DNA of 64,000 nucleotides, taken from contig ML978125.1 of NCBI GenBank assembly GCA_010015805.1, forward strand, positions 1,302,001-1,366,000, written 5' to 3'. Positions within the stretch are counted from its first letter, which is position 1. Each line of letters begins with the position of its first letter. Source of the DNA: Rhizodiscina lignyota. Its lineage: Eukaryota. A program made the translations under genes and the position numbers. Positions 1 through 59,183 of this stretch are shown one piece after another. The notes below the pieces were generated by a model. It was not told the origin of the DNA and did not search any database. It saw only the letters and a program-made list of their open reading frames with translations.

Positions 1-18
1 AAGAAGGGTACGAAGGCC

Positions 19-1756: not shown

Positions 1757-3395
1757 TCAGAAGCCCAGATCTGCACCGACAGTCCGCCGCCGCTCCCGTT
1801 CGAGCGTACGCGCTGGCGGGCGTCGCAGGAATTCTGCAGCTATGACCGAGGCAGCAACGCTGACGTTCAGGCTATCAACGCCAACATCATGCGGCCGTTT
1901 TGCTGCAGTCATTGACACAAGGTAATCCGCATGAGCAGATAACGTCTTGCGCAGACCCCTGCCTTCTCCACCAAAGAGCAACAAGCACGGATGTTGCACG
2001 AGCGGAATATGATCGACGAGCCGTTTGCTAGGAGTCTGTGCATCGGCAAGGTGTAGGGCGCTAGTAGAAGATTCACTGGGATTTACAGGGAGAGGGTGGC
2101 TCGAGGCAGTCTCTGCTGTGCTACTTTCGGAGAATTTTGATGCAAGATCTGGCGTCGGCGGTGCTGGTTCAGGCGTCATGCCGGCGTATATTGACCACCC
2201 GTTCTTCTTGCTTTCTGCGAGGAAGTTGCGAGTTGATTCGATGGAGAGCAATGGCATCACTTCAGCCGCACCGGCTGATGCCTTCAGTGCGACATTGGAC
2301 GGGGGAGCGCACGTTCCGTGATCGATCGCCAGCGCGTCCACCCCAAGGAAGTAGGCAGACCGAATGATGGCTCCGAGGTTGCCTGGATCAAGCTGGCAGA
2401 GCAAAAACGTGTCAGCATGGTCAATTGGCAAGGGCTACTCTTTCAACTATGGCCGGGCTTTGATGGCCAGGCGCAAAATACTCACAACATCATCTATACA
2501 TAGAACAAGCGGATAGCGCCATCCGTCAGAGCGGTAGGACAATGAACTTAATTCCTGCTTATTACTTGCACGTGAAGTAAAAAGCCGAAATATTGTATCC
2601 CATTCGTCAGGCTTGCGCCGGAAATCGTCGGTCTCGCCTAATGCTGCTATTGTCCACCGCGGGAGCGGTGAAGCATCAAGAATTACGCCCTTGAGGCTGT
2701 CAGTCAGCTCAGAATGGGTAGCAGGTATCAGACCCAGAGCGTCGCATGATGATGGTACTTACATTGTGGGCACGCCCAGCGGCCATTTTATCCAGGGTGG
2801 GTAACCAAGCGTCATTGACAGATCGCACGGAAACTCCAGCTTCACGTGCAAGACGCAAAAGTTCTGGAATAGAATCTGTGGATCGATCAACCGTGGATCG
2901 TGATGCTCTTGCGTGTATATACAATTTGTATAGTTTTCGACGTTTGGCTTTTAGTGCCGCAGAGACAACGGAGTGACCATAGAGGAACTGCGATTCGGCA
3001 GTGGTATAAGGAATAGAAACCGGTGTTCGTTCCTGGCTCTCGGTACTGCTTTCATGTTGGATCACAGGCCCAGATGTTCGGTTCAAGATACTGGAAGACG
3101 TCCGCGGGGATGGCTGCGGTCGTACGAGTGGTGGTGTGTATTTGACATTGTAGATCATATCTGACCGTCCAAACGTCTGGTCTCTAACTCTAGGGGCATT
3201 TTCCACTGTTTCGTAACTGTTTCGAGCAGGCCGAGAAACGCCATCTCGAGCCGGAGATGATCTGATGAGACCACGTTTGATGGCAGATGTTGTAGACTTG
3301 GGACGAATGGAGAGGGCTGTAAAAGGAGATTTTACGAAACGAGAGTGCGCTGATGAGAGATTACAAGCTGCGCGCCACCATTTGCATACTCTCAT
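1757..3395 (-). CDS. MRM1: Mitochondrial rRNA 2'-O-methyltransferase (SpoU/TrmH family), 3 exons
   Basis: Motifs SIPYTTAESQFLYG, RAHN|GVILDASPLP, DD-V|LDPGNLGAIIRSAYFLG, GGEGRGL and VDSLNVSVA. Basic N-terminal targeting-like sequence. Two GT-AG introns join the ORFs. Confidence 0.9.
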
Positions 3396-3721
3396 CGCAA
3401 TTTTCTTAGTCTATACAGGAGCTCATAATGTCTCCTATCAATTTGCCAACGCCACTATGACAGAAGCAGTCAAGCTATGGCACGGCAAGTTCCGAAAGCG
3501 CGAACGCGTCGAACGCGAGCGACTACTGTGTTACCTTGCAATAAGGCCCTATTGTCCCACCCACTCCTCTAATCTCTGTCGCATCGCGATTCTACGTTCC
3601 CCTTAGAGACTGGCGAACTGTCTGTGAACTTTGCTTTCTTCCCGTGCGCCATGGCAGGGCGTAGGATAGATCTGTTTAGCTGCATCTCAACGCTCGTTTG
3701 CACTTCTATTCCACAATCAAG

Positions 3722-6700
3722 ATGGCGCTAGATAGCGACTCGGATGAGCTTATGGAGGATCCGACTTCTTTTCTGGATAGATTTCGAAGGAAAGAAGATC
3801 TAGGATCTCGAGCGCAAACACACGGGCAGAGAAGCCCATCGCAAACCAACGAGTCTCCTTCACTCTTCTTATCCGCCGCCTTTTCACCCGCTCCCACATC
3901 TCTGCCAGAATCCCCTCGCTTCACTCGAATTGGGCGAAAAGCTTCACAGTCGCCAATGCACCGCGGCCAACTGTATATTAAGATACCATCGCCTCCAGAA
4001 GATAAGGAGGAGTACGTATTTCTGAAGGGCTGGAATACAATTCAAAAGGTTCTACGTGAACTTGAAGGAGAAGATGGCTTGATGTACGAAGTCAGATACG
4101 GAGATAACCATAATGAAACGGTACGTTAGTCTTGGAGTGAATCTGCTTGGTGCGGAAACTCTTGGCGCCTATTAAAGGCTTCGAAACTTCCCTCAACTTT
4201 CTTTCATTCTCAACCTCCACCTTCTCACGGCACAAAATTTAAACCTTGTCACTTGCCACGGCCTTGCAACTCTTGAAAGAGCTCTGAGGGTTTTGCATCA
4301 AGCCTCCAAGCTCTTACAAGTCATCCGCGTCGTACAACGACTGTTCATTCTCTGAGGTTCGGGGTAGCTAAGACCGAATCGCAAACAGTTACCATTTGAG
4401 AAAGTACTCCAAACCACAGGCGGTGAGAGCGCTCTCTCAAAGTTTGAAAGCGGTGAAAACAGCATCTCAGAGAACACCAAAAGCTCCGACTCTGAAGACG
4501 AACTGAACATGGTCGAGACGCGTCGGACCAGGGTGAAGGCAAAGCCCACCTCAGGCTTTGTCAACACAGTGGACGCAATATCAGACGATGAGGTTCCAAC
4601 ACAGCCGACGAGTCGCCAGCGTCGAGGCTCTCCAACACGGTTACGCCTCACGTACTACAATGAGCAAGAGGATGATGATGAGTCGGCAGACGAGGAACCA
4701 GGAGATGAGGAGTCGGAAGATGATGACATTCACACAAGGCGCAAGACCCGCTCCTCATTGAGATCGAATGGGCGAAGCGATCGAAGATCCTCACGACTTA
4801 AAGAGAAGTTTGTGGTTGAAGATGATACCGAGAAAGAGGGAGAAGAGTCCGATAACGACAGCGATCTTATGCTTCTGGAATCCGACATCCTTCCAAGAGG
4901 CCGCAAGCGAAAGAGCATTGGTCGTCAGAGTCTCCATCAATCTGGTCGCGCATCAAAGGCTTCGCGAGTCGCAACACGACGCTCGGATCGTACCACACGA
5001 ACGTTCAATAATATGGAGGAGATTGACATTGACAATATATATCGATCTGACTCTACCCAAGACGGTGCGCCTGTTCAGCCGAAGATCGCTGCTGTTCGTG
5101 AGGTATTCAAGTTGCTTCTAAACAGCGTGTTCCGCCGACGTCACATTGAGAACTGCGAAACATGCGGCAAGCCATCTACCTCTGGACCTTTGATCTGTTG
5201 CCAAGGATGCACACTCGCTTACCACAAAGCATGCCTTGGTACCCGCACAACACGAGAACATCTTGTGACCAAAGTCGGTGAGGATGATTTCGTTTTGCAG
5301 TGCCGCCGTTGTGTCAATGCGCACCACAAGAAAGACCATCTTGCACCCAACCTTGGACGCTGTCAAATATGCAGTGAAGCTGGTTCAAGCTGCAAGCCTT
5401 TTCGGCAACGCAAAACACCGGCTGTAGAGCAGCGGGAGCGACTTGAGAACGGCGGCTTAGACCCGGTGACCCATGTCCGGCCTGAGCTTATCAACAACGA
5501 AGAGAACGTTCTCTTCCGTTGCGTCAAGTGCTGGCGTGCATTCCATTTCCATCATCTGCCCAACATCAACCAGTACCATGTCGATTCGGAGACTGCCACA
5601 GATGCGGAAATTGCAGACAGCCGTTATAATCAATACAAAACCGATTGGATCTGCAAAGATTGCAAAGATATGCCCGCGGACGTTGGCGGCCTAGTCGCAT
5701 GGCGTCCAGTGGATACTGATGCAACTACGAGCGCTGGTACTCAATTCGCGTTCGACGAACTTGACGAAGACGACAAGGAGTATCTCATCAAATGGAAGGA
5801 ACGATCATATGCTCAATCTGTTTTTATGCCCGGCGCCTGGGTATACGGTGTAACAGCGATTGGTACGCGCGCCGCGTTTGCAAAGAAAGAAAATGGTCCG
5901 AAGATGCGCATCGAGGACGCGATCCCTGAGGAGTTTCTTCGAATCGATATCGTGCTGTCCGTTGAATACACAAACAAGATCGACGCAAATCTTTATGAAG
6001 TGGACAAAGCTCGTATCTCAGAAGTCGCCCGCGCGTACATCAAGTACAAAGGCCTCCCATATGAAGATGCAGTTTGGGAGATCCCTCCTCGGCCCGAAGA
6101 AGGTGATCGCTGGGTCGACTTTGTTACTGCATACAACGATTGGGTCCTCGGCCGATATGTGCATCTCCCCAAGCTCGCACCACTTAAGGCCCGCTTAGAG
6201 AAAGTCCGAGCCCAGGAGTTTTCCAATGTCGAAAAGAAGAAGCAGCCTGACAACGTAACCGGCGGCGAGATGATGAAATACCAGATTGACGGCTTGAACT
6301 GGCTCTACTACCAGTGGCATCAACAGAAGAACGGGATTCTCGCTGACGAGATGGGTCTAGGCAAGACCATCCAAGTCATTGCCTTCCTTGCCATGATGGT
6401 CAACGACAACAACTGCTTTCCATTCCTTGTCGTGGTGCCAAACTCAACCGTGCCAAACTGGCGTCGCGAAATCAAGAAATGGGCGCCTTCTCTACGCGTC
6501 GTGACCTTTTTTGGAACAAGCGCAGCCCGGGATATTGCTTACAAGTACGAGCTGTTTCCGGAGGGCTCTAATGGATTGAGAGCTCACGTCGTAGTTACAT
6601 CTTACGATGCTGCCGCCGATGACAACTGTCGCAAATTCTTCAGGCGCGTACCTTGGCAGGGACTGATTGTCGACGAGGGTCAGCGTTTGAAGAATGAGCG

Positions 6701-9026
6701 AAGTATCTTGCACTTGGCTCTTAAAGCACTCAAAGTTCCCTACCGAATTCTCCTCACAGGGACGCCTCTACAGAACAACGCGAAGGAGCTGTTCAACTTG
6801 CTGGAATTCCTGGATGATACCCTTGACGCAGACAAACTGGAGCGTGAATATGAGGACATGACTGAGGCAAAAATAAGGAAGCTCCATGAGCTTATACGAC
6901 CGTTCATTTTGCGACGCACAAAGGCCCAGGTCCTCACCTTCCTTCCGCCTATGGCGCAGATCATCCTACCAGTGTCGATGAGCGTTCTCCAGAAGAAAGT
7001 CTACATGTCAATTCTCGCACAGAATCCGGAGCTTCTCAAAGCTTTATTTAGTCGCCGCACTGGGTCTGAGCTCAACAAGAATGAGCACGCGAACCTCAGC
7101 AACATTCTCATGCAGCTGCGGAAGTGCCTTTGCCATCCTTTCGTGTACAGCAGGGAAATCGAAGAGCGTAATTTCAACGCAGCTGTGTTGCATCGGGGTC
7201 TCGTAGAAGCTTCGTCTAAACTGCAGTTGCTTGAACTATTGCTACCGAAGCTGAAAGAGAGGGGCCATCGTGTGCTTATATTCAGCCAGTTCTTGGATAT
7301 GCTCGACATCATGGAAGACTTCCTGGATGGCATGCAGCTGAAATTCCAACGTCTTGACGGACAGATCAGTTCTCTGGAGAAGCAGAAGCGCATCGATCAA
7401 TTCAACATGCCTGATTCGGACCTCTTTGCCTTTCTCCTCTCCACGCGTGCTGGTGGTGTTGGCATCAACCTTGCAACTGCTGATACTGTCATCATATTGG
7501 ACCCCGATTTCAATCCACATCAGGATATTCAAGCGCTTTCTCGAGCTCATCGTATCGGACAAACAAAGAAGGTCCTCTGTTTCCAGCTCATGACCCGCCA
7601 CAGCGCAGAGGAGAAAATCATGCACATTGGCCGGAAAAAGATGGCCTTGGATCATGTGGTTGTCGAGCAGCTGGATGCTGATGACGAGGGAGAGAAGGAT
7701 CTGGAATCGATCCTTCGCCACGGCGCTGCTGAACTCTTCACAGAGAACAACGAGGAGCAAGAAATCAAATATGACAATGCATCAGTAGACAAGCTTCTCG
7801 ATCGGAGCCATATCGAGAACACCAAGACCGGTGGCGACGACTCTGCCGAGTCTCAGTTCAGCTTTGCTCGTGTGTGGGCCAACGATCAGGGGACACTAGA
7901 GGAGAATATCGAAGCAGGCGAGGAGAAGGCCCCAGATCCGACGGTTTGGGACAAAATCTTGAAGGAGCGTGAGCGTGCGGCCGCGGCAGAAGCAGCAGCA
8001 AGACAACAAGCCCTTGGGAGAGGAAAACGTGCTAGAATGGTGAGTTCGTGCACATCTTTTAGTTGACAATATATTTTACTAACTCAGTATACTCCGTACC
8101 AGGCTGTCGATTACGTAAACAATGCTACGGCAGAAATCGCTGATGGCGAAATCACGGCGATGGTGGAGGCGGAAATCGCTCCTCTTCGAAACGCCCGTCG
8201 TAAGGGCCATGAGGACAGCGATACAGACTTTCAGCCGGACGAAGAGAAGGAACAGGAACAGAGCGCCGATGAAGAAATGGGTGCTGTCGATGCTGATGAG
8301 CTGTCTCCAACAAAACCGGCATCTCGCGAGATTGGTACCACTGCACCATCTTCCCAGTCTCGAGCCCAGCCTCCAAAACAGCTGCCTGGACTCCAGTCCC
8401 AGCCAAAGTCCAGAGCAACGCATCCGACGTTTAAACGCGCACGTGTGCAGCCGGCTCGAGTACCAGCAGCTCTCCCAGGAAACCGTGCGGCGTCGAATGC
8501 AGGTCAAGGAATTCAGACGACCACACCCCCTTACGAGCCACCGCCACCAGTAGTCACGTGCTCTGCATGCGGCAAGACTCATCACCAAGGTTCATGTCCA
8601 CTGAAGCTTGCCGGAGTCGAATTTTGCAACCTCTGCGGACTTGCTCACTTCGGCGTTGCGCGCACCTGCCCCCACGTCAATAGCGAGACTCAGGTCATCT
8701 TGATGATCGAGGCTCTTAAGCAGTCCCGCGAAGCACCTCATTTGAAGGAGACTGCGCTGAAGTATCTGAAAGGAGTAAAGGGAACGCTGGTTCAGGCGAA
8801 GAGAAAGGCCAGGGAGAAAGCAGAAGCTGAGGCAGAGAATGTGAGGACAGGTGCGGTGAGAACAGTTCTGAATGGCCATAGCGGGGAGGCATTGAGGCCG
8901 ACTACCGGGAATGCGAATGCAGGTTCTAGTTCGCGCGGGCGGACTCCTCAGGGCCCTGCGACACCATACGAGGAGCCGGTGGAGCATAGACTTCTAACTG
9001 CTCTGGGCCAGAATCGAGTTGCTTAG
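3722..9026 (+). CDS. mit1: CHD/Mi-2-type chromatin remodeling ATPase (Mit1-like, SHREC), 3 exons
   Basis: PHD fingers (CETC..CCQGC..H..C), chromo-like region (YLIKWK, YIKYKGLPYEDAVWE), SNF2 motifs (ILADEMGLGKT, VDEGQRLKN, LLTGTPLQNN, LLSTRAGGVGINL, QALSRAHRIGQ) and a C-terminal Zn motif (CSAC..H..C, CNLC..H). Introns at 4121-4388 and about 8040-8102. Confidence 0.9.
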
Positions 9027-12866: not shown

Positions 12867-13337
12867 CAACACCGCGAGATCTGCATTCATGCCCCAATCT
12901 CATTGACGGGTAGCTGCAGGATCCCGCTGTACTGCAAGATTCCCGAACAAGCGAAGTGCAACAACCACAATCACCAGTCGGCCACTGTCCCGCAACAAAT
13001 CATCGCTGCGCGCCATAAGAGTCATGTATGTCTTCAATATTGTTTGGAACATGCTAGGATCTTTGCAGGACCTGCAGCATCCCGTTCTCGGAGAGCCAGC
13101 GCAGTAAGCGCGTGAGCTGTGACAAAGTTTGGTCAATGCCACAGGTCAACTTCAGGGTATATATACAAAATGTGTTCTACCCTGAAATGTCTTCCTTTTC
13201 CTCATGGTCTGAGTTCCAGATAACCTCAAATGCGAAGTTCACTGTTGATTCTATAATCCGCCTTTAATCATTGCCGCGCAGAAACTGGAGCAGGTCTCCG
13301 CAGCGTCTCAGGAATCAACATTGGAGAAGTCTGCAGA

Positions 13338-15499
13338 ATGGCTTATACGCTTCCGACATCCGGTCCAAGAGCACAGGATGGACCCAAGCCCCAGTGGGTC
13401 CTCTCTCGCGGAAATGGAATCTTCACTCCACTAGTCCCTGTCGACGAGTTGCCCTCGTACGTCCAGCTCCAAGGAGCTCCGCGCGTGATTACCCTTCATC
13501 AGGCAAATGGAATGACACTCCTTGGAGAGCAGAAGCATACTAGCTTCTACGTTGCTGTTCCTGAGCATCAGCTCCCTATTCGACCGGCAGTATCGTGGTG
13601 CACATCTACGACCTATGGCTCATCTCCAGAATCCGTCAGCGGACATACGTTCCAGGCCCCTGGTGCACGCATTAGACAAGCATTGCACCAAAAAAGCTCT
13701 ATAATGTCAAGAGATATTCAACAACAGCACCAACAATCGAGCGACAGATCCCTTGATGTTGACGCCCGCAGGGCAGCCAGCGCGACACAATCAACGAACA
13801 GCAACGCTCTCGTGCATCATGACTCTACAGTTTGTAGCCTTCTGCGAACGATATACGTAGCTATGAAACTAACAGTCGGCAGAAGCCCTTTGTCGAAAGA
13901 ATCGCCTCCTGCAATGCCCCCCAGGTGGCCCAAGTCGGCAATCTTCCATACAACCAGCGTCCCCTTCCTCCGTCAGGTTTGGAGCCTGATGCCGCGAAGA
14001 AGGAGTACTGTACGCATTGGATCAGGACTGGCGAATGTGACTATATGCAACAGGGCTGTCTCTTCAAGCATGAAATTCCTAAGAGGAAGAAGCTGGAGGA
14101 GCTCGGTTTCCGAGATGTTCCAAAATGGTGGCGAGACCATCAAGCTGTGAAGCTCAAGAGAAGTGATTTGGTGCTGACTGAAGCACAAGAGAAAAATAAA
14201 TCCATATGCGCAGGGATGAAATCACAGCAACCTGGGGCTGATGACAGTGATTCGGAAGAGGAAGAGCTGCTTAAGACTGAGCACTCGCTCAAACCTCTAT
14301 TCAGCGCTGTACCTCTTCCTGTCATTCGCCCACGTACTTCAATTCCGCCAATAACAGTGAGGAAAGATAGCCCGACCTCATCAGACAATTCGCTCATCGA
14401 TCTGGACACTCCAGCTATGTCGCGTTCGAGCTCGCCAACTACGGTTATTGCTGGCCTCAGTGGAATGGCGTCGTCCAATGCAAGGAACAGGAGGACCTCG
14501 GCTACGTTTCGAAATAGCATCTTCATACCAGCTGGCGAAGCCTCATCTTCGTCTCTTTCAGAACTAAAGAAGCCTTGTCGAGACCACCGAAAGATCATTT
14601 CTTTACCGCCAACGAAGAGCAAGGGGTTGGATATTCGCAAAGACGCCGATGGCTTCGTCCACTATTTTCCCAGAACAGAAGACATTGCCGTGCCTTCCCG
14701 TACGACGAGTCCTCATCCCATTGAAGACAAGCTGACCCTGCAGGAATTGCAGCCTTCTCGCCACGAAGTGTCTGGGCCGCTGAAGGTTTATACTGGAATG
14801 AATCCGTACCTCCACGAAAAGCTCCAGGAGGAGAGTGGCTGGGAGCAGAAACAGAAGCACGAAGCTTCTCGTAACTCCAGAGTCGCTGAAACTCAACGCG
14901 ATCACGAACCTATAGGCCAGGGCATGGTCTCTGCAGTGACGCGTACATCACCGAGCATTCGTCGAGATCATCACTGTGCCGGAAACGAGAGAGGTAGAGT
15001 GACTCTGGCAGATGTGTCACCTGAGTTGGACTGTATCAGAAGCACAGTGGCATCAACTGCTGTCGCTCCAACTCCAAACAATAGCCCGACGGGTTCCATA
15101 TCTGGACTTGCAGCTTCAAAATACGCCACTTCTGCGAAGACCGACACTATCCCGACTGGGCCCAGCCAATCTGGAGGACGTCACACGAAGAGACAGTCAC
15201 TTGCACCAGCCAAGATTGAAACTCTGGCTCGAAATCATAAGGAAAAGCATGATACTCTGCGGCGCACTGAAAAACGTGGCAAGAATGACAGACACTTGTC
15301 AATGGCGAAGCAAAATGGGCTGAGGGTTGAAAAGGAGAGGGCAGAAAAGGCAGAGAATGAGGTGAGGGCATTGAAGGCGAAGCTCGCGATGAACAAAATG
15401 GAGAGGAGAAATGCGATAAGCGAGAAGAGTGACTGTGGTGATGTGGCGAATATAGACGTAGGCGAGGCTGCTGGTACTGGAGACTTCCTGAACACTTGA
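13338..15499 (+). CDS. CCCH zinc-finger protein (C-x8-C-x5-C-x3-H type), 2 exons
   Basis: KKEYCTHWIRTGECDYMQQGCLFKHEIP; N-terminal motif FTPLVPVDELP; probable intron at about 13831-13881; coiled-coil C-terminus. Confidence 0.8.
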
Positions 15500-37419: not shown

Positions 37420-38419
37420 TCATATCTTATCATCCCACTCTTCTCGAGGCACGTATAGTCTCCCTCCTTCTCCTCGCTCTGTTGTGAACTCACGAAGTGT
37501 ACTGAAGTCGCGGCACGTATGCACCTGATCTGAGTCGATATACGGATGCTCGAGCCCGTCGAAATGTTTCTGTGGTATGAGAGTGGTGCTGCCATAACAC
37601 TGAATCTCCTGCCTTAGTAAGTCCAGACAGTGTTCTAAGGGCCGACAGTTGTCAGTTCTCTGGTTAAGGAATGAATGATTTCATGTCACTTACCTAAGTG
37701 CACCTGTCCGTGGATGTCAGTGTACGGGTAATAATCTTGTCCCAGGGCTTTTCGCAGCGCATTCTGCACTCATTTAATGTTAGAAATTGTCAAGTCCAAC
37801 GATATCGACCGTCTTACAAGACAATGGAGTGCGTGGAACATATCCAAACTGGTACGTCGTTAGTTAAAAATGATCTTTGGAACGGAATACGATGCACCAA
37901 CCCCGCAGTATAGCCTCCTCTGTATGGATCTCTATACATCACGTATTTGTCGCCCCAGGCCTTCTTCGCCTCTTCCTCTGATACAGAGAAATATCGGTCG
38001 CCAATTAAATCATGCCAGGCCCAATCGATTTCTCGGCTCGGCTCCCCGAAATACCTTCTATTCTCCGGCCATGGAGCATTCGAGTCCACTGGAGTTCTCC
38101 ATGCAGTTCCATTGTCAAAGAAGTGGGGACTTCCAGTGAACCGGACCCTTTTGAGCCCGACCTTCGTTGGCAACGTCATGTCCGTACCAAATTCCGTCTC
38201 GTATGAGCCTGAGGGTCCGGAATATGAGGGCGACAAAAAGAGAAAGAGCAAGACAGAAGCGAACAGAATATTGAGTATCCATGGAAGAGCGCTCAGCAAT
38301 GTTACGTCCCAGATCCGTGACCGTCTTCGTTCTTGTTGCTTAGTCTGTGGAGGCTCCTTCTCATGTAGCGATTCTTCGTTTTCATTGTTAATGTATTCCT
38401 CCAATCGTGAGTACTTCAT
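37420..38419 (-). CDS. DUF3328/UstYa-family HxxHC oxidase #1, 4 exons
   Basis: Exons 38419-37902, 37848-37818, 37763-37694 and 37634-37420. N-terminal TM helix; motifs YFGEPSREIDWAW, GLDMFHALHCLNALRK, HLEHCLDLLRQEIQC and HTCRDF. Confidence 0.92.
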
Positions 38420-39009
38420 TTTGCTACATGCGTGTCAAGTTTGTCGTCGAGTGTCAGAAATATCAGGTTGCAAGGTGTGCAGACCAAAACCTCGGGCAGT
38501 AGCAGTAAGAATGTGAAAAATGCGGCAGCCACTGGACATTTAAAGCAAAGTTCACTGACTTACTCAGCCTAGACAATCTGACAACGTCACTACGAACATC
38601 ACTGCACTTGGATCTTTCATCGACGGATTGCGATGCCGACGGCGCCCATCCCATCTCAATATTCACTTAAGGCTTGGCCTCACTCTGCGTTGGATTGATC
38701 AAGCAATTAGATGGCCACTGCTTGACCATCAATTAAGGGGTCTCATTTAATGTCATGAGGAGATAAATGGTGATTATATTGACTTTCTACATCTAACTTG
38801 CGCAACAGCAAGATTTCGAAATGACCATCTAATCTCCCCATCTAGACTGCAACTTCCATCACCGCTTGCTCCACCGATGGCACTTTGGTGGTTGAAGAGA
38901 TCGTCGGACCTGATGAATGCTTCAGCACGAGTCGTCCACTGCGTCGATTAAGGGCCGCCACATACCATCGATAAGTCAACCTGCGACCGTATGAGCAGTT
39001 TGAACGAGT

Positions 39010-39210
39010 TTAGTCGCCCTACAGATACAATTAGATTGTTTACTTCTCCAGCTGGTGTCAACGGATCGAACGTACATCGTCTTCAGGAATCGGTTCAAGG
39101 TGTCTGGCAATGGGGCCAGCAGCACCGACAGCGCGTTCCTCGACAGGCAGGGCGAGGCCCATGGACCCGAAGGCTAGAGTAACAAGGGCGATGCAGAAAG
39201 TGAACTTCAT
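39010..39210 (-). CDS. Small secreted peptide; candidate RiPP precursor (not in the ORF track)
   Basis: MKFTFCIALVTLAFGSMGLA-LPVEERAVGAAGPIARHLEPIPEDD, then a 57-nt GTACGT...CTAAT...TAG intron (39075-39019), then GD-stop, giving 47 aa. A at -3 of the ATG and an upstream TATAAA. The 3' structure is uncertain. Confidence 0.7.
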
Positions 39211-39275
39211 ACTGAATGTTCAAGAGAAAGTAAGGCTTTGTTGATGGCCGAGTCTGCATCGAATTCGCGACGTTC

Positions 39276-39281
39276 TTTATA
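39276..39281 (-). promoter_or_regulatory. TATA box of the small secreted peptide gene
   Basis: TATAAA on the minus strand 65 nt upstream of the ATG at 39210, followed by a CT-rich leader. Confidence 0.5.
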
Positions 39282-39780
39282 CACGGCTGAGGACTGCTCT
39301 CGACCCAGTCGACACCGCTGGCACCGAACCCATCGCCCACGAATCTGGAATATGGTCTATGAGATCTCAGAGATGTGGCATCTGATGAAGATTTTCGCTT
39401 GGTCGTAAGCTGATGTTTCAAGGGTGTTACATGTGGGACAATGTCACAATGATTGACAACACACAATTCAACTTCCGTTCAGCATTTCCGATCCTAACTC
39501 CATTGCTCATGCAGAATCAGGAACATGGTCAATTCTTGTCGCAGCAGTTTCAGCTCGACTGAGTTACATCACGAGAATTTTGATTTCTGAGAATTGAAGG
39601 AAATTAAATCTTATCTTGAACTAGCTCAATTTGGGAAAAGATCTTTTTATCATTTTCTCAGTTCTGCGATCTCTTCGGTGTCTGCAGTACTTCCCACTGC
39701 TCAATCACACTCCTCTGCCACAATCCATTTTTTCAGATTTTGTCTCGAGGTGTCAGGAGATTGTTGTCAAATCTAACAGA

Positions 39781-40824
39781 ATGAGATCTTTCTTTCGACA
39801 TGCGCAGTCACCGCTTTATCATCGTCTCGGAGATGGCGAATCTGAAAAGGAATCTGGGGAGGATGCCAATACCTTCACGGAACAAACATCACATGAGAGG
39901 AAATATCACGCAAAATTCTTAGCGGTCTTAAGCATTTCAAACATTGTCACTGCATTCATATCATGTCTATTTTGGAGGAGGGTTTTTACGCCCACATTTG
40001 GGTCGTTTTCGACTGGTTACGCCACTGACTTCGGTAAGTAGTTGAGGAGGAGTCTAGGATTAAGTCTAACGATGATTTTAGGACCTGCACGATCTCACAT
40101 TGAAGTTGAGCTTGTGCGATTCACAGGAGGGCCATCATTTCTTCCAAACGGCTCCATGTACATTCCGCATCCCACAGAGAAGAAATATGTCGGAGATCCC
40201 GAGCCCGAAATCGATCAGAATTGGGAGGAACTCACCTGGGGTACATAAATCACATTTCTTTTGCTTGATAAAGTGATTTACTAAATGTTGCATTAAGGTC
40301 GGTACATCCTCGCGACTGAAGAGGAAATGAAAGCCCAATGGCCGGACGAATGGGATCAGTTCTGGGAGGAAGCAAGAGGTGGATATGTTGTTGGATTTGA
40401 TATGTTCCATACTCTCCATTGTCTGGTATATTATCTCCTTCATAAGCTCAACATTGAAATGAATCCTCTGATTGGCATCCAGAATCGACTTCGACGAGAT
40501 TACTATCCAGACTACTATGCGATCAAGAATACAACCAACCACTGGCTTCACCGCGGTAAGTGGTATTCCGACAAGATTATAGGGAAATATATGTTGATTT
40601 CGACCTCAGACCATTGCATAGAACAGATCCGGCAGTACATCATGTGCTCTGGAGACATGACGCCTATACCAACGCGCTATTACCCGTCGAAGGATAGAAA
40701 TTACGTGGACTCCGACTATCCACACACGTGCAGAAACTATGAAAAATTGCATAATTGGGCAACAGAAAGGTATAATGGCAGTTCAGCGATACAGCCACAT
40801 TTCCGTGAGGAGCATGAAGAGTAG
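39781..40824 (+). CDS. DUF3328/UstYa-family HxxHC oxidase #2, 5 exons
   Basis: Exons 39781-40033, 40082-40240, 40298-40425, 40483-40555 and 40610-40824. TM helix; motifs YVGDPEPEIDQNW, FDMFHTLHCLNRLRR, HRDHCIEQIRQYIMCSGDMTP and HTCRNY. Confidence 0.92.
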
Positions 40825-41738
40825 ATAGAATTCACGATCCCAAGTCACAGTCACTTAATATCTGCTCTGAACACCGATACACATACTTTCGTTGTTATCT
40901 CTACACAAAGCAAATGGACTCCAAACATGGAAATTTTCCATATTGATTGAGTTTACTCAAAGATAAATCTACATCAACTGAAACCCATGTCAAATATCAA
41001 ACTCTGGAAAGCTGTTGGGCGGGGGTTGAATCTCTGCATGTTCACGACCCACAGTTACTTGAAAATAGACTGCCCTTAGTCGGTCAATCTCACATAATTT
41101 TAGTTTGCAAATGATTATAAAGTAGTCTATTTCTAAGAGATAGATTTTAAATTGCTGTGTTGCATCGTAGACGGCCTAAAGGGACCCCAGCATGACTCTA
41201 CTTCCGACGAATCGACCAAGAAGCCGCTATCCAGAAGAATTGACAATGTAACCTGCAACATCAAATGAGAATACTAAGATATGACGGAAATGTAGCTTAT
41301 GAGCCCTGGGGAATATCTTACTTCTTCCGGGCACATAACCGTTACAGTCTTTCGAGAGAAAAGCTGAAGACATGGCCCATCGGAAATATATATAACTCTG
41401 AGGCCGCCAAGTCGTCGGAAGAATTACTTCACATAGACTAGTCTAGGCCGAGCGCTGATTTTTCTGTTACAGAGCAGACTTTGGCGGCTCTCAGTCTACA
41501 GGCTCTGGTTTGCACATCTGATTCTTAATTCCGTGAGCAGGACATACCAGAGCAGCGAGCTTCTTTACAACCTGAATGTTACTCCCTGTATTCAAGGCCA
41601 TGACTAGAGAGCTTTATCATTGAAGCAGTATGACGCCCCAAATTTGTGGAATTCATGAACATAGACTAAGTCCATGCAGGAGCAGAAGGAACTTTTCCCG
41701 CTAGAGAACTAGATAGCAATATTCAAAGCCACACAGCA

Positions 41739-42449
41739 ATGTCGGACCCAAAGAAATCGGAGGAAAATCTCGCTTCAGAGGCCTTGTTGTCTCCCACAGA
41801 TTCTGGAGACGAGCAAGACTTCGAAATTTCTGGTCGAGGAGAGAAAGGCGTACTACGTTCTCCGCAAAGGCACCGTACGCTTAAACGCATAGTACAGCTT
41901 ATTGGTAAAACTGTTGTGGTGCTACTTTGCGTGTATGGTGCAATAGAATTGAGTATCAAGGCCCACGGCTCTATTCAGAAATGGCAGACGGCCAATGATC
42001 TCACCTTCTGCAACTGCGGGGACTCAACGGACGAAGCCATCTCCCTCGGTTGCGAGTACGTGCCTCTGGCTGCAGCATGGCTCCCGCCAAAGTGCCGGGA
42101 TGAAGAACTCGAAGCCGAATTCAATCGAGCTGGTCCAGATGGTTCATGGTCGTATTACAAAGATCGGAACGGCACGGCCGAGTACGATATCAGTGAGCTC
42201 GGATGGTTATCGGACACTGGGGAGCTGTACCACACAACAAGGAGATGGCATATCGTGCATTGTGTATACTACTGGAAGAAGCTGGCAAGGTCGAAACGGA
42301 CAGGCGTACCCATCGAGCCAAGGTATGATGGCGAGGGCCACATCGACCACTGCATGAAGACCTTCCTGAAGCCTGGGGATCGTGAGAAGATTGCAACTCG
42401 GCAAGGTGCATCGCTGATTTCTGATCACGCTGTTGTTACCGAAGGGTAA
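41739..42449 (+). CDS. Membrane-anchored HxxHC protein of a second subtype (DUF3328-related)
   Basis: Intronless 236 aa. TM segment, Cys motif CGDSTDEAISLGCEY...WLPPKC, then WHIVHCVYYWKK and HIDHC. Confidence 0.8.
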   Translation: MSDPKKSEENLASEALLSPTDSGDEQDFEISGRGEKGVLRSPQRHRTLKRIVQLIGKTVVVLLCVYGAIELSIKAHGSIQKWQTANDLTFCNCGDSTDEAISLGCEYVPLAAAWLPPKCRDEELEAEFNRAGPDGSWSYYKDRNGTAEYDISELGWLSDTGELYHTTRRWHIVHCVYYWKKLARSKRTGVPIEPRYDGEGHIDHCMKTFLKPGDREKIATRQGASLISDHAVVTEG

Positions 42450-42869
42450 AGATGATGAAATTTGGTAGATGAGAATAATACGGATGAGAAATGAGACTCA
42501 ACCATGATGTTGCAGAAATCCGGCAGTGCTTGTGTTTAGGCTAAAATTGCAACCGCGCTGCACTATGTCGAAAAGGGACACTAGCGCCAAATGTGCAAGT
42601 TCAAAAAAGGGGAGAAACCAGAGTGCATCTCAAAATCTTCCCCGTAAACTTCGGACTGATACAGTTAATCGGTAATAGCTTCATAAGGTAAGACACCTTT
42701 CAAAATTCGAGGTAGATAACCTGGTTTGGACGTGCACCGTACTATCGTATCGTAAACATGGCCGCCATGATTGATCGTCAAACCACCTGCTCAGTTTTGA
42801 TACCGCCCCGCTAGACGTCCGCTTGTCTTCCGATGATTATGTACCATCTCTCACAGTACTCAATCAGCC

Positions 42870-44612
42870 ATGCGAGAACGACCTGCACCAGATCTACAGG
42901 GAGAACGACAATTTGAAGTAGTCATTGGCATCCGCGGCAATGACAGGCAAGATGAGGAAAGTTCATCCTCAAGGACGGAAACTATGCGAGAACGTATTGG
43001 GCGTGTCAAGGAAGATGTCCGGTGTCTGACAGAGTTTTACAATATCGAGGTATCTTCTACGCGTGTGAGGAGACTCCAGCGATATTTTCGTCAGCAGTTG
43101 AGCGATTTGAAGGAGAACGAAGCGTTCGATAGATTCGATCAGTCCGACAAAATCGACTATTTGAACTTACGCAACTACCTGGAGCGCAACCTTCGACAAC
43201 TTGGTTTTGATGGAGACAAGAATGAATCTGCGATTGTCCTTCTTCCATTTGCAAGTCTTCTCATCCGGCTCTGTGAAGATCGGCAACAGATGAAAGCGAT
43301 AGATGCCAAGCGCGCAGCGGATGATCTGTTCGAAGCTGAGCGACAAGCCATAATAATGTATAAGGAGATAGAACATGGCCAACATCATGTCAGCAAGAAT
43401 GATGCATTTCGGGCTACCAATATACTACAGAAACTGCGCTCCCACCTTGCGGAATGGTTCCACTTCTTCAAGGGATACGATCCAATGTTCGACTGGTGGG
43501 TGCCAGAGCCGTATTATAAGCTTGATACGGCAATGGAAAGGCTGTCGCAGATCATACGGGAGATGCTTGTCGGTATCAAGCTCGGCGATGAGGATGCCAT
43601 AGTCGGAGAGCCGATCGGTCGAAAGGCACTACTCACCGAACTGGACGCGGAGATGATCGCTTACACGCCAGAGGAGCTGTTAAAGATTGCCGATCATGAG
43701 TACACTTGGTGTGAGGCAGAGATGAAGAATGCTTCCCAGGAGCTAGGACACGAGGACTGGCGTGATGCGCTTGAATATGTCAAGAACCTTTACGTTGCGC
43801 CTGGCCAACAGACCCAGCTCATCCGCGACCTCGCTGACGAAGCAACGGAGTACGTCAAGAAACATGATTTGATAACGGTGCCGCCCATTTGCGAAGAAAC
43901 ATGGAGGATGTTTATGATGAGTCCCTCGAGGCAGAAAGTGAACCCCTTCTTTCTCGGCGGCCGCACCATTCAAGTGTCTTACCCGACAGATACCATGGAC
44001 CATGAAGCAAAGATGATGAGCATGCGCGGCAACAACATTCATTTCTCCCGGTCGACGGTGTTTCATGAACTCATTCCAGGCCATCATCTGCAGATGTACA
44101 TGAACGATCGGCACCGTCCTTACCGCCGTCTATTCTCCACGCCGTTCTCGATTGAAGGTTGGGCTCTTTACTGGGAATTTATTCTGTGGGACAAGAAGTT
44201 CCCCGAGACGCCCAAGAATCGCATCGGCATGCTCTTCTGGCGTATGCACCGCTGTGCGCGCATCACGTTCTCCATCAAATTCCATCTGGGCCTGATGACG
44301 CCGCAGGAATGCATCGACCTGCTCGTAGATAAGGTAGGCCACGAGCGAGCTACAGCAGAGGGAGAAGTACGGAGATCATTCAATGGCGACTACAGTCCCC
44401 TGTATCAATGCGGCTATATGATCGGTGCATTGCAACTGTATTCATTGCGACAGGAGCTTCTGGGGCCCGGGAGGATGACAGAGAAGGAGTTTCACGACCG
44501 GGTCATGCGAGAAGGGCAGATGCCGATTGAACTCCTGCGTGCGTTAATACGGGAGAAACGAGTGACGCGAGACTACAAGCCGTCATGGAAATTCTACAAG
44601 AGTTTAGAGTAA
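42870..44612 (+). CDS. DUF885-family putative metallopeptidase
   Basis: Intronless 580 aa. STVFHELIPGHHLQ and SIEGWALYWE match the HExxPGHH and EGWALY motifs of DUF885 proteins. Confidence 0.85.
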   Translation: MRERPAPDLQGERQFEVVIGIRGNDRQDEESSSSRTETMRERIGRVKEDVRCLTEFYNIEVSSTRVRRLQRYFRQQLSDLKENEAFDRFDQSDKIDYLNLRNYLERNLRQLGFDGDKNESAIVLLPFASLLIRLCEDRQQMKAIDAKRAADDLFEAERQAIIMYKEIEHGQHHVSKNDAFRATNILQKLRSHLAEWFHFFKGYDPMFDWWVPEPYYKLDTAMERLSQIIREMLVGIKLGDEDAIVGEPIGRKALLTELDAEMIAYTPEELLKIADHEYTWCEAEMKNASQELGHEDWRDALEYVKNLYVAPGQQTQLIRDLADEATEYVKKHDLITVPPICEETWRMFMMSPSRQKVNPFFLGGRTIQVSYPTDTMDHEAKMMSMRGNNIHFSRSTVFHELIPGHHLQMYMNDRHRPYRRLFSTPFSIEGWALYWEFILWDKKFPETPKNRIGMLFWRMHRCARITFSIKFHLGLMTPQECIDLLVDKVGHERATAEGEVRRSFNGDYSPLYQCGYMIGALQLYSLRQELLGPGRMTEKEFHDRVMREGQMPIELLRALIREKRVTRDYKPSWKFYKSLE

Positions 44613-56208: not shown

Positions 56209-58038
56209 TCATCTTGTGTGCCTAGCTCCCTTGGAGGATGTCTGCTTTGGCACATTTGCACAACTTTCCTCCGCCGGCGCTTTGCTGCTATTCCTCGTAC
56301 TCCGCCGCACATGTGGTTTCTTCGCCTGCCATTCGGTGTTTTCTACCTCTTCTTCATCAGTCATTTTCCGTTTCGCAGCTTGTGTGGGCGGAGGCGTTGG
56401 AGGATCGTCGGCTTGGGTTACTTTGTGCTCAGGAGATTCGACAGGATAGCGGATGGATGCAATGAGTTGTTCCCCGACCACCATGAATGGATCTTCAATA
56501 ACTTGAATCTTTGGCTTTTGGACAGGCTGTTTTTTTAGAACGTTTTGCTGGTGGCCGGCTGTTTGAACTTGCCCAGCGATGCGTGCGCTCCTACGCGTAG
56601 GAGACCGGGAAGCTTCGTCGATGGGGTCACGTCTCTGTTCGTCTCGATCACAGGTCCTTGGGTCCTCGTACACAACGACAGAGTTTCGGAATCGCTCTGT
56701 ATCTCCCTCGGTCTGTGCCGAGCTCAAGAGAAAATCGCGCCAGTGTTCCAGAATAGCATCGTGTATGAGGAATGTAATAGTAGGTGCAGGCCCAAAGATT
56801 CGTCCTTTAATCAGGTTATGGAGCTCTTGGTCACCTACGCGACCCTGCCGTTTGATGTCGAACGAGGAATCGTCCTCTGCTTGAAGCTCAACATATTTTA
56901 GGAAGCGTTGCCCCCAATGAAACTCTGCTGCTGGAACTGTTGACGAAGATGGTTGAGGTGAGTGTCTTGGGCTTGAAAGAGGAAGGATCGGTTGTGCTTC
57001 GCCTCTACGGACTTCGGTGTCTCCATGGCTCGTTCCAGGGGTGATTGGGCGTACGCAATTGGTGTCGTGGGACTCATTTCGCGGTTGTCCAGCGGTTATG
57101 ATTCTATTCGTCTCAAGTTGTTCCTGGATCTGCTGCAATTTCTGTCGCTCCAGGCAGTCAACTCGGATTGTGGCAGGTGTTGGGGGCCGCTCCTCATGAT
57201 CCTCGTGCATCCATGTACGCCCTGGAAAGTTGACCCACTTGGGGTTCCAGATTTCCCTCTCTACCCAGGATTGCTTCACAGCAGTGAAGGCAGCTATGAC
57301 TAGGTCTTCAGTATTCCGTGGCATTGACCAGAATTCTCGCTTATTCTGTATCCAGTCCATCTCAATGGAAGCTTGGAACATGAATTGACGATCAGGACGA
57401 GATGCCGAAACGTCGGTAAGCCAAGGATAGCCCTCAGATATGGATCGGGCCTGCAGTTTTTCGTAGCGGTCCAACATGGGGTGCTCAACGTCATCGGCTT
57501 CATGAGCCCAATGGCCATGGACAGACATTCCGCCATCGAGATAACCCCATTTCTGGCCAGTCTCAGGGTCCGTCTCAGTTCTTGCACTCCAAGCACGACC
57601 CCATCCCGATTTCCAGATTCCTTGTTGAATCCAACGATTGCGTACGTTGTTCTGTGCGTTCAAAAACCAGTCGAGACTCTGATCGAGCGGAAGAGTATGT
57701 TGACGTCCGTCTTGCCAGAGTGTATCTTGATGATGGATGCGCAGGATTTCCATGTCAACCTGAGAAATGAATTGACTGGCTGGCATGGATGCGTTCAGGC
57801 GCTTCCATTTCCACTCGTAGATATCTGACTTGTTGAGCTCATCCCATGAAGGGCTCGGCAGCGAGAGAGGCGAGACAGAGATACCAGAATCATATATAAT
57901 ACGCAATGGCGGATCTCGTTGAAAGCGTTTTTCGGTCACCGCCTCCCATCGCTCGGGGGGGTACTTCTCCAGGCGGCGGATGGTGTACTGAATAATTTCC
58001 AATGACTCCCCACTTGATTCGCCTTCGAAGTAGGGCAT
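56209..58038 (-). CDS. Hypothetical Trp-rich protein
   Basis: 609-aa ORF with a duplicated motif (VRNRWIQQGIWKSGW / VKQSWVEREIWNPKW, each later followed by WxHE) and a disordered basic C-terminus. Confidence 0.65.
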   Translation of the reverse strand: MPYFEGESSGESLEIIQYTIRRLEKYPPERWEAVTEKRFQRDPPLRIIYDSGISVSPLSLPSPSWDELNKSDIYEWKWKRLNASMPASQFISQVDMEILRIHHQDTLWQDGRQHTLPLDQSLDWFLNAQNNVRNRWIQQGIWKSGWGRAWSARTETDPETGQKWGYLDGGMSVHGHWAHEADDVEHPMLDRYEKLQARSISEGYPWLTDVSASRPDRQFMFQASIEMDWIQNKREFWSMPRNTEDLVIAAFTAVKQSWVEREIWNPKWVNFPGRTWMHEDHEERPPTPATIRVDCLERQKLQQIQEQLETNRIITAGQPRNESHDTNCVRPITPGTSHGDTEVRRGEAQPILPLSSPRHSPQPSSSTVPAAEFHWGQRFLKYVELQAEDDSSFDIKRQGRVGDQELHNLIKGRIFGPAPTITFLIHDAILEHWRDFLLSSAQTEGDTERFRNSVVVYEDPRTCDRDEQRRDPIDEASRSPTRRSARIAGQVQTAGHQQNVLKKQPVQKPKIQVIEDPFMVVGEQLIASIRYPVESPEHKVTQADDPPTPPPTQAAKRKMTDEEEVENTEWQAKKPHVRRSTRNSSKAPAEESCANVPKQTSSKGARHTR

Positions 58039-59183
58039 TTTTGTGTTGTAGCAGGGGCCAAGAGCACAGGGAAGACGAAACGATCGGATCGATACAAGAA
58101 CAGAATCTCACGAAATATCTGAGAAATTTTGACTCAAAGAATTGTCAATGTTGACTGATTTCAACGAATGTAGGCATGTAGAACGACGACGACTTGTCTA
58201 GGGATACAACAATTTCGAAGTAGACTCTCGTCCGCACATATTCAGCTCTTTAATCGGTACACAAGCCCATAAGCGCCTGACGAAGTTCTCTACATCATGA
58301 CTCTGGTTGGTACTACCTACCTTGTTGCTGGCGTCCTAGACGACGTGTATGGAATGACTGCGGTGTGGTTGTCAACTTGAGGAGATGGCGATCTGAACAT
58401 TCTTTGTTGAGACAAAACAGGAGGTCAGAAGGGCGCTAATCCGCTTTCGGGATAGGATAGGCGTTTGTCGTGTTCTTCACCAACGCCACCGCTACGCTCT
58501 ACTACCTTAGCTGTCCTACCCACACTTCCTCATTGACCTCTCGGAATCCGATTCTAGTACAGTCCATGATAGATTTCATGGTGTTTGTCTTAAATCTGGT
58601 GTCTAGCTGTCGAGAATTTGACATTCCATAGGCTCCGTGTGGTTGGAGCTATCGTATCCGCCACGCCCTTCCTCAATTTCAACCCTAGCTATCGAAAAAA
58701 TTTGCTTACGCGTCACGAGCTAGTCCTTTGATTCTCAACTTTCTGGGGATTATCTTGCATATAACGCCCATTTCGTTGCCCCGTGAACCAGCAAAGGACG
58801 AATAATATTTCATGCTAAACCAGCTTTTCAATTCCTTTTCATATGATCCGATTCAGATATACACCTCCCAGATGGCACTAACGCCTCTTCAGTCGACAGT
58901 GCAGATTCCACCAGACATGCGGAAAAGTGAGGCTTCCACTCGAACATGTCGTCTAGCAGTACGGGTTTTCCCAAAAAAAAAAAATATGGAGAAAGAGCCC
59001 TAATCTCATGCTATTCGTAGAATATCGTTTTGTGGCGTATTTGCCTCAAAGCGTCTGCATCATTTTTCTACTTATATACTACGAATCGGATGAATAGAAC
59101 AGTTCAGATACCTCCACCCCTCTCAATTTCTCTTTAGCATTTCTTTACGTGCGTCCCTTCGTCATCCTCGCTCCGCAACCTCA

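Follow-up and report, generated by a model that had tools for sequence, protein, structure and literature searches.

A candidate UstYa/DUF3328-type RiPP gene cluster of a filamentous ascomycete with a double-HxxHC protein family outside Pfam

Introduction

The dikaritins ustiloxin, phomopsin and asperipin-2a are fungal peptides that are made by ribosomes and modified after translation (RiPPs). In their gene clusters a precursor gene encoding a signal peptide stands beside several genes for membrane-anchored DUF3328/UstYa proteins with two HxxHC motifs each (PMC12048977, PMC7329392). Here we describe a locus of similar composition in a 64-kb stretch of DNA from Rhizodiscina lignyota (contig ML978125.1, 64,000 nucleotides), which is called the window in the following. 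The locus contains three genes for double-HxxHC proteins, named g1, g2 and g3, and a microgene for a small peptide with a signal peptide. We consider it rather probable that the locus is a UstYa/DUF3328-type RiPP cluster of a filamentous ascomycete and that the microgene encodes its precursor.

The dikaritins have been given a five-gene definition (PMC12048977), and the locus agrees with it in part. The signal-peptide precursor of that definition has its counterpart in the microgene, as judged by a heuristic signal-peptide call. The multiple DUF3328 proteins have their counterparts in two Pfam members, g1 and g2, and a motif-only relative, g3, within 5 kb; g3, the third enzyme, is of a family that the Pfam UstYa model does not cover. 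In contrast, a tyrosinase and a small-molecule methyltransferase, as in the dikaritins, are absent among 44 pieces of the window that were scanned with Pfam. These comprise 8 pieces of the locus and 36 of the 126 stop-to-stop frames of at least 110 amino acids, and the queries were single exons or frames. Dikaritin precursors carry core or recognition motifs repeated between Kex2 (KR) sites (PMC12048977). A tandem-repeat precursor is found in a related locus, L003, described below, but not in the window, where the peptide has one unit without KR or RR separation. The core tyrosine of the dikaritins that takes part in the ether cross-link (PMC12048977) is present neither in the window peptide nor in the L003 unit. 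Since the window peptide contains no tyrosine past the signal peptide, the tyrosine-ether chemistry of the dikaritins cannot apply to it.

The epichloecyclin cluster gigA/gigB/gigC/kexB is also minimal and combines a small secreted precursor with a DUF3328 protein (PMC10540207). Single-repeat gigA-like genes beside DUF3328 have been reported in a relative, which is a precedent for a precursor with one unit (PMC10540207). The epichloecyclin cluster differs in its kexin-type protease and its SET-domain methyltransferase, both of which are lacking in the cluster described here. Moreover, its listed cores contain aromatic residues (PMC10540207), whereas here three HxxHC enzymes accompany a non-aromatic unit. 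Orphan UstY clusters of lichen fungi (Clans R1 and R2) likewise show two conserved HXXHC motifs and no recognized repeat precursor; some of them contain signal-peptide genes without repeats, and a single core peptide is thought possible by those who described them (PMC12048977). Their accessory genes are different, with a tyrosinase and methyltransferases in R1, and in the accessible parts of that report neither a g3-like family nor a related repeat precursor was seen (PMC12048977).

It was only in 2025 that DUF3328/UstYa proteins were shown to be binuclear copper enzymes that attack inert C–H bonds (PMC12435403). Most of their genes have no substrate assigned to them, and only about a third are near a Kex2-repeat precursor (PMC7329392). 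The DUF3328 protein CctR is a membrane-anchored homodimeric binuclear copper hydroxylase with its motif on a pair of helices where the two monomers meet. It dimerizes by way of the membrane helix and a motif-bearing four-helix bundle, contains two copper ions per monomer and has an O2-dependent mechanism (PMC12435403). The CctR-type motif HxxHC(x)nHxxHC is present in g1, g2 and g3, of which g3 fails the Pfam model.

Results and Discussion

The UstYa/DUF3328 Proteins g1 and g2

The features of the locus and the peptide genes of two related loci are listed in Table 1. A first-pass annotation, made from the letters of the stretch without database searches, had described three membrane-anchored proteins with two HxxHC motifs each within 5 kb, a signal-peptide microgene between the first and the second of them and divergent from the second, and a DUF885 gene following the third. 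All motifs and positions given there were correct, and the placement of the microgene and the identity of the DUF885 gene were confirmed.

Table 1: Features of the candidate cluster and the adjacent DUF885 gene in the window and of the peptide genes in two related metagenome loci.
Feature	Position	Strand	Description
g1, UstYa/DUF3328	37420–38419	−	4 exons, 277 aa, N-terminal membrane anchor, HALHC and HLEHC
g1 exons	38419–37902, 37848–37818, 37763–37694, 37634–37420	−	GT..AG introns of 53, 54 and 59 nt
Microgene, candidate precursor	39058–39210	−	50-codon open reading frame; predicted signal peptide and about 30 residues with one acidic, proline-rich unit
TATAAAG box	39275–39281	−	Within the 571 nt that separate the ATGs of the microgene and g2; 71 nt upstream of the former
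g2, UstYa/DUF3328	39781–40824	+	5 exons, 275 aa, membrane anchor, HTLHC and HRDHC
g2 exons	39781–40033, 40082–40240, 40298–40425, 40483–40555, 40610–40824	+	GT..AG introns of 48, 57, 57 and 54 nt
g3	41739–42449	+	Single exon, 236 aa, membrane-anchored, HIVHC and HIDHC; ascomycete family without Pfam model
DUF885 gene	42870–44612	+	580-aa open reading frame; PF05960, E 1.2e-45; 420 nt downstream of g3, same strand
L003 peptide gene	5566–5931	+	121 aa: predicted signal peptide, one K-R, four 26-residue repeats
L007 peptide gene	7421–7698	−	Two exons (one intron), TATAAAG, predicted signal peptide, a motif of about 8 residues present twice

The gene models of g1, g2 and g3 were built from the sequence, and all their introns are of the GT..AG type. 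Each of the three proteins has one hydrophobic helix after a polar N-terminus, which was read by eye from the sequence for g1 and g2. The two motifs are spaced by 28 residues in g1, 28 in g2 and 30 in g3. A six-frame scan without splicing detected 12 HxxHC motifs in about 128,000 residues, 4 of which belong to g1–g3. This unspliced scan misses the second motifs of g1 and g2 because each of them is split by an intron.

The first-pass annotation had assigned all three proteins to DUF3328/UstYa and had proposed a comparison with PF11807, for which the gathering cut-off is 25 bits. When this comparison was carried out with exons and frames, g1 matched with exon 1 (E 6.3e-07, 29.9 bits) and with its last exon (E 1.9e-13, 51.2 bits), and g2 with the frame 40297–40821 (E 1.4e-26, 94.2 bits). 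By these profile matches g1 and g2 are members of the Pfam UstYa/DUF3328 family. The assignment thus stands for g1 and g2 but not for g3, which gave no match to the Pfam UstYa model.

The proteins g1 and g2 are 31% identical to each other. Their genes have two intron positions in common, one after the first motif and one inside the second motif, and the UstYa genes of the related loci L003 and L007 each have one of these two positions. A search with exon 1 of g1 returned a single relative, a 95-residue fragment (P0013, 63% identical by tblastn), which stops at the same exon boundary as g1. Past the second motif two cysteines are found in g1 and two in g2.

A Microgene for a Candidate Precursor Peptide

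The microgene is placed between g1 and g2, upstream of the former and divergent from the latter, with a distance of 571 nt from ATG to ATG. Its TATAAAG box matches the consensus, and a similar TATAAAG precedes the ATG of the small peptide gene in L007. The predicted N-terminus contains a hydrophobic core with small residues at positions −3 and −1. All signal-peptide calls in this work come from a crude, heuristic scan; when it was run over the whole window, the microgene was the only intergenic small open reading frame with a convincing signal peptide.

A phmmer search with the microgene peptide in 1.84 billion proteins yielded the sequence P0016 (E 1.6e-04) with 61% identity over query residues 1–46. 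P0016, a 167-residue frame called on an assembly contig of 5.9 kb, includes homologues of both the signal peptide and the unit. The other three of the four matches at E ≤ 0.001 were long proteins matched in several short stretches; they were set aside as driven by composition. A word-indexed protein search with the microgene gave no candidate, and its matches in the ESM Atlas, bacterial lipoprotein clusters at a score of 0.78, were judged to be noise.

The peptides were also aligned in pairs after removal of the signal peptide. The microgene peptide reached a score of 56 against P0016 (shuffles 22.8 ± 4.6) and of 49 against the L003 unit (shuffles 19.5 ± 4.6), and in neither case did any of 5000 shuffles attain the observed score. 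For P0016 against L003, both without signal peptides, the score was 42, which was reached by 10 of 5000 shuffles. BLASTP of the microgene peptide against the L003 unit gave E 2e-04, and a second BLASTP comparison gave E 0.004. The units follow the common pattern [IV]-[TA]-[KR]-x-L-x-P-[IV]-[PA]-E-[DE]-D-[VI]. From its position and this likeness, the microgene is probably the precursor gene of the cluster.

An alternative reading of the microgene with a 57-nt intron (39075–39019) would result in a product of 47 residues. This reading is less favored because the tail of the unspliced form, R-S-I-R, is similar to the end of the L003 unit, R-S-I-Q-A-R, and because the similarity to P0016 runs just beyond the putative donor site. 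The best local alignment pairs the R-S-I-R tail with a different stretch of L003.

Recurrence of the Gene Set in Related Loci

Metagenome contigs were scanned with an alignment of the g3 family, which gave eight loci with a g3 relative (L001–L008). About 10 kb on both sides are available in L003 and L007 only; the sample for gene neighborhood consists of the window and these two loci. Five other loci are too short to judge for neighboring UstYa and peptide genes, and no Pfam domains were found in the flanks of L004, L005 and L006.

Both L003 and L007 contain a Pfam-positive UstYa gene near a g3-family gene. The distance is about 0.8–1 kb in L007; in L003, which has two g3-family copies, the distances are about 3.5 and 5.2 kb. 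In both loci a small gene with a predicted signal peptide is divergent from the UstYa gene. The peptide gene of L003 sits between the UstYa gene and an ankyrin-repeat gene, and the two g3-family copies lie 2.1 and 3.8 kb past it. Its repeats end in A-R rather than K-R, with one KR in the whole peptide, and the repeat unit contains no tyrosine. The L003 peptide has the look of a repeat precursor, one which KR-based mining might overlook. In L007 the UstYa gene starts about 350–480 nt from the peptide gene and is followed by the g3-family gene. The window has the same gene order, namely peptide gene, divergent UstYa gene and g3. The two motif copies of the L007 peptide contain Trp, Phe and Cys.

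Among the g3 relatives of the eight loci those of L003 and L004 are the two closest (46% identity each), and that of L007 shows 32% identity. L003 is close to the window in both enzyme and peptide and L007 in neither; thus, peptide likeness tracks enzyme likeness. The module of peptide, UstYa and g3-family genes recurs in L003 and L007. This recurrence, the divergent peptide genes and the likeness of the peptide units lend comparative support, at the level of sequence, to a RiPP cluster. The first-pass annotation had viewed the locus as a minimal RiPP system acting on the adjacent peptide. The recurrent module and the resemblance to the L003 unit speak for this view, apart from the UstYa membership that it implied for the third enzyme.

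The g3 Family Lies Outside the Pfam UstYa Model

In the Pfam scan g3 gave no match at E 0.01, and no UstYa match even up to E 10. A protein search returned 11 relatives at E ≤ 0.001, none of which has a precomputed Pfam domain; two of them carry a name, each as a hypothetical protein, one from a Cadophora species and one from Aspergillus brasiliensis. In the ESM Atlas, g3 falls into unnamed ascomycete clusters, which have 114, 51 and 51 members. A UstYa-bearing cluster appears there at rank 18 with a score of 0.85, which we take as a lead only.

The motif residues H171, H174, C175, H201, H204 and C205 of g3 are invariant in 20 of 20 aligned family sequences, and so are C105, W114 and C119. All four cysteines of g3 outside the motifs precede them, and among these C93, C105 and C119 are invariant or nearly so. 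As judged by the Pfam model, the g3 family is set apart from UstYa, with which it has the motifs in common.

An AlphaFold2 model of g3 was confident, with a mean predicted local distance difference test (pLDDT) value of 82.8. Residues 1–40 showed low pLDDT and were followed by a helix (43–88); the motifs are located in predicted helices 168–188 and 199–210. When two copies of residues 40–236 were modeled together, the homodimer scored 0.75 in all 3 runs, compared with 0.01 for the best of 3 controls. The runs had at least 97% of their contacts in common, and the pLDDT of the partner was at least 87. In the calibration of the mark used for a dimer, 21 of 30 proteins with structures solved as pairs of one chain attained it, against 0 of 23 solved as single chains; for eukaryotic proteins the numbers were 17 of 29 pairs and 0 of 30 single chains, but only 1 of the 7 without an older solved relative. 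A Foldseek comparison of the g3 model with the PDB found nothing at E ≤ 0.001. Since there was no g3-like solved structure, it seems unlikely that the dimer score reproduces a known structure.

The modeled interface is formed by the membrane helix (60–71) and the motif helices (169–184 and 198–215) and is of the type published for CctR. The predicted features of g3 that resemble CctR are a disordered N-terminus, one membrane helix and two paired helices at the homodimer interface which bear the HxxHC(x)nHxxHC motif (PMC12435403). CctR differs in its C-terminal cysteines, which form disulfides between the monomers (PMC12435403), whereas g3 has no cysteine past the second motif. It also differs in its substrate, a non-ribosomal peptide (PMC12435403), the candidate substrate of g3 being ribosomal. 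We propose that g3 is a DUF3328-like binuclear copper enzyme.

Neighboring paralogues of the g3 family were observed in L006 (481–909 and 2304–2576) and in L003 (8031–8819 and 9683–10435). The two L003 genes are divergent, and their products are about 27% and 46% identical to g3. Such pairs suggest local duplication within clusters of this kind.

Proposed Pathway and Alternative Explanations

In the pathway that we propose, the microgene product of 50 residues would enter the endoplasmic reticulum by means of its signal peptide. The N-terminally anchored enzymes g1, g2 and the divergent g3 would then modify the single acidic, proline-rich unit in the lumen of the secretory pathway. Each enzyme would be a homodimer with a binuclear copper site formed by HxxHC(x)nHxxHC, and the likely chemistry would be an O2-dependent attack on C(sp3)–H bonds, that is, hydroxylation, desaturation or cross-linking. 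Proteases would then cleave at flanking basic residues, and the cell would secrete the product. We infer all of these elements, namely copper, lumenal topology, substrate, chemistry, cleavage and secretion.

Several observations weigh against a RiPP cluster with the microgene as precursor gene. The microgene peptide has a single unit, no KR or RR site, with R-H where P0016 has K-R, and past the signal peptide no Tyr, Trp, Phe or Cys. A tblastn search with the microgene against L001–L008 found nothing at E 0.01, so that its likeness to L003 surfaced in pairwise tests only. The L007 peptide is unrelated in sequence to the microgene peptide, and the L007 precursor is therefore defined by position and form only. 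The recurrence of the module comes from a small sample, the window and two loci, and L003 and L007 may stem from one campaign because their contig names share a series. L005 showed neither UstYa nor any Pfam domain in 6.4 kb of one side, the other side being cut off. Evidence for homology between g3 and UstYa beyond the motifs themselves is weak and limited to the motif region. In the g3 family there were sub-threshold PF11807 matches of 17.3 and 20.5 bits, below the cut-off of 25, which came from the same two proteins in both scans (2 of 12 and 2 of 17; 2 of 18 overall), and both spanned profile positions 119–177, the two-motif region. An hhalign comparison of the g3 family with a UstYa alignment of four sequences drawn from the loci gave E 0.0041 and a probability of 8% over 56 columns covering both motifs; an earlier attempt had given E 0.026 and 1.9%. 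Finally, the enzyme class itself also acts on non-ribosomal products, as does CctR (PMC12435403), and 31.8% of 9399 DUF3328 genes lie within 15 genes of a Kex2-repeat precursor (PMC7329392).

These last two points lead to the strongest alternative, according to which the HxxHC enzymes act on an unlinked product of a non-ribosomal peptide synthetase (NRPS) or a polyketide synthase (PKS), or on another secreted substrate, and the small open reading frame is unrelated and merely shares the promoter region. Non-ribosomal substrates are established for DUF3328 enzymes, with CctR acting on cyclochlorotine and ApnU named as a halogenase (PMC12435403), and some two thirds of DUF3328 genes have no Kex2-repeat precursor nearby (PMC7329392). 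The microgene peptide, moreover, offers neither the aromatic residues used in known DUF3328 cross-links nor dibasic sites. However, a small signal-peptide gene is divergent from a UstYa gene in all three loci with enough context; in two of them the peptide is internally repeated like known precursors, and the window peptide is related to one of these. Furthermore, the 44 scanned pieces of the window showed no NRPS, PKS or tyrosinase; in L003 and L007, neither an NRPS nor a PKS was seen within 10 kb. The absence of NRPS, PKS, tyrosinase and methyltransferase genes from the window, as claimed in the first-pass annotation, held for the first three of these in the scanned pieces; the sole methyltransferase among them was a SpoU-type RNA methylase (1760–3410), about 34 kb away. 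We regard this alternative as rather unlikely.

A second alternative concerns the DUF885 gene, which the first-pass annotation had counted as part of the system. Its product could be a dedicated pathway peptidase that frees the core peptide at basic residues. The position of the gene, 420 nt past g3 on the same strand, and an H-E-x-x-x-G-H-H stretch in the open reading frame would agree with such a role, and we take DUF885 to be assigned to a metallopeptidase-like clan. A scan for a signal peptide or membrane anchor at the start of the DUF885 open reading frame and upstream of it detected neither, whereas a lumenal position is expected for the substrate and for the catalytic domains of the enzymes. 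A tblastn search of L001–L008 gave no DUF885 counterpart, and the gene is absent from both L003 and L007. The relatives of DUF885 in the PDB are three uncharacterized bacterial proteins or lipoproteins, and among the literature matches listed for DUF885 no link to fungal peptides appeared. Since no signal peptide was detected in the protein and neither L003 nor L007 has the gene, the evidence does not support counting it as part of the system. Most of this evidence makes a pathway peptidase unlikely, and the DUF885 gene is probably a bystander.

Also unlikely is a decayed or silent remnant that yields no mature product, with a precursor shrunk to one unit (against four in L003) and a lost processing site (R-H at the K-R position of P0016), given that all four open reading frames are intact with canonical splice sites and that P0016, which also seems to have a single unit, keeps 61% identity over 46 residues. 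This identity is similar to the divergence of the enzymes from their nearest relatives (54–63%), which argues for selection on the peptide, although P0016, P0013 and P0002 need not share one organism.

If the locus is a RiPP cluster with the microgene as precursor gene, what is new here is a family of non-aromatic precursor units next to double-HxxHC enzymes, together with the g3 family as a recurrent partner outside Pfam. This candidate precursor family would escape repeat-based mining, and the four-repeat relative in L003 marks the likely core. The second double-HxxHC family, which is absent from Pfam, lies beside UstYa genes wherever a locus has enough context, which suggests a superfamily broader than its model and cooperation between the two families.

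More tentatively, the locus and its metagenome relatives could represent an undescribed subclass of copper-oxidase-dependent fungal RiPPs in which UstYa proteins have an obligatory partner from the new family and the precursors are invisible to Kex2-repeat mining. We see this as a possibility rather than as an expectation. The units of such a subclass would be acidic, proline-rich and devoid of aromatic residues, would end at single arginines and would number one to four. Its enzymes would attack C(sp3)–H bonds of aliphatic, prolyl or acidic residues, a chemistry not yet known for the enzyme class, and the subclass would account for some of the many DUF3328 genes that have no recognized precursor. 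The four-gene set is small enough for direct heterologous expression. Should the interpretation as a RiPP cluster fail, the locus would join the many orphan "fungal RiPP-like" clusters that genome-mining tools flag.

Genomic Neighborhood

The DNA of the window is fungal, with short GT..AG introns and a G+C content of about 50%. The cluster is flanked by ordinary genes, which were recognized by Pfam as coding, among others, for a Mit1-type remodeller, a CorA transporter, an MRC1-like protein and dehydrogenases. Further neighbors are a seryl-tRNA synthetase, a purine-cytosine permease, an amidase and an FHA kinase. The stretch from g1 to g3 (37420–42449) has a G+C content of 46.2%, compared with 49.9% in the rest, and is the lowest in the 64 kb. 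Its low G+C content fits an accessory gene island amid housekeeping genes.

A comparison of the intergenic spaces for common promoter motifs found only chance-sized repeats. Long inverted matches turned out to be merely the coding similarity of g1 and g2. Some long open frames had no Pfam match at E 0.01, namely 56212–58107 on the minus strand (632 aa) and 13257–15496 on the plus strand (297 and 553 aa). Besides the first long frame of the window (1–1083), no open reading frame for a repeat peptide was detected in the window. This frame is rich in lysine and proline and looks nuclear; within it, at 666–1040, lies a 168-nt tandem repeat of 2.2 copies with 77% matches.

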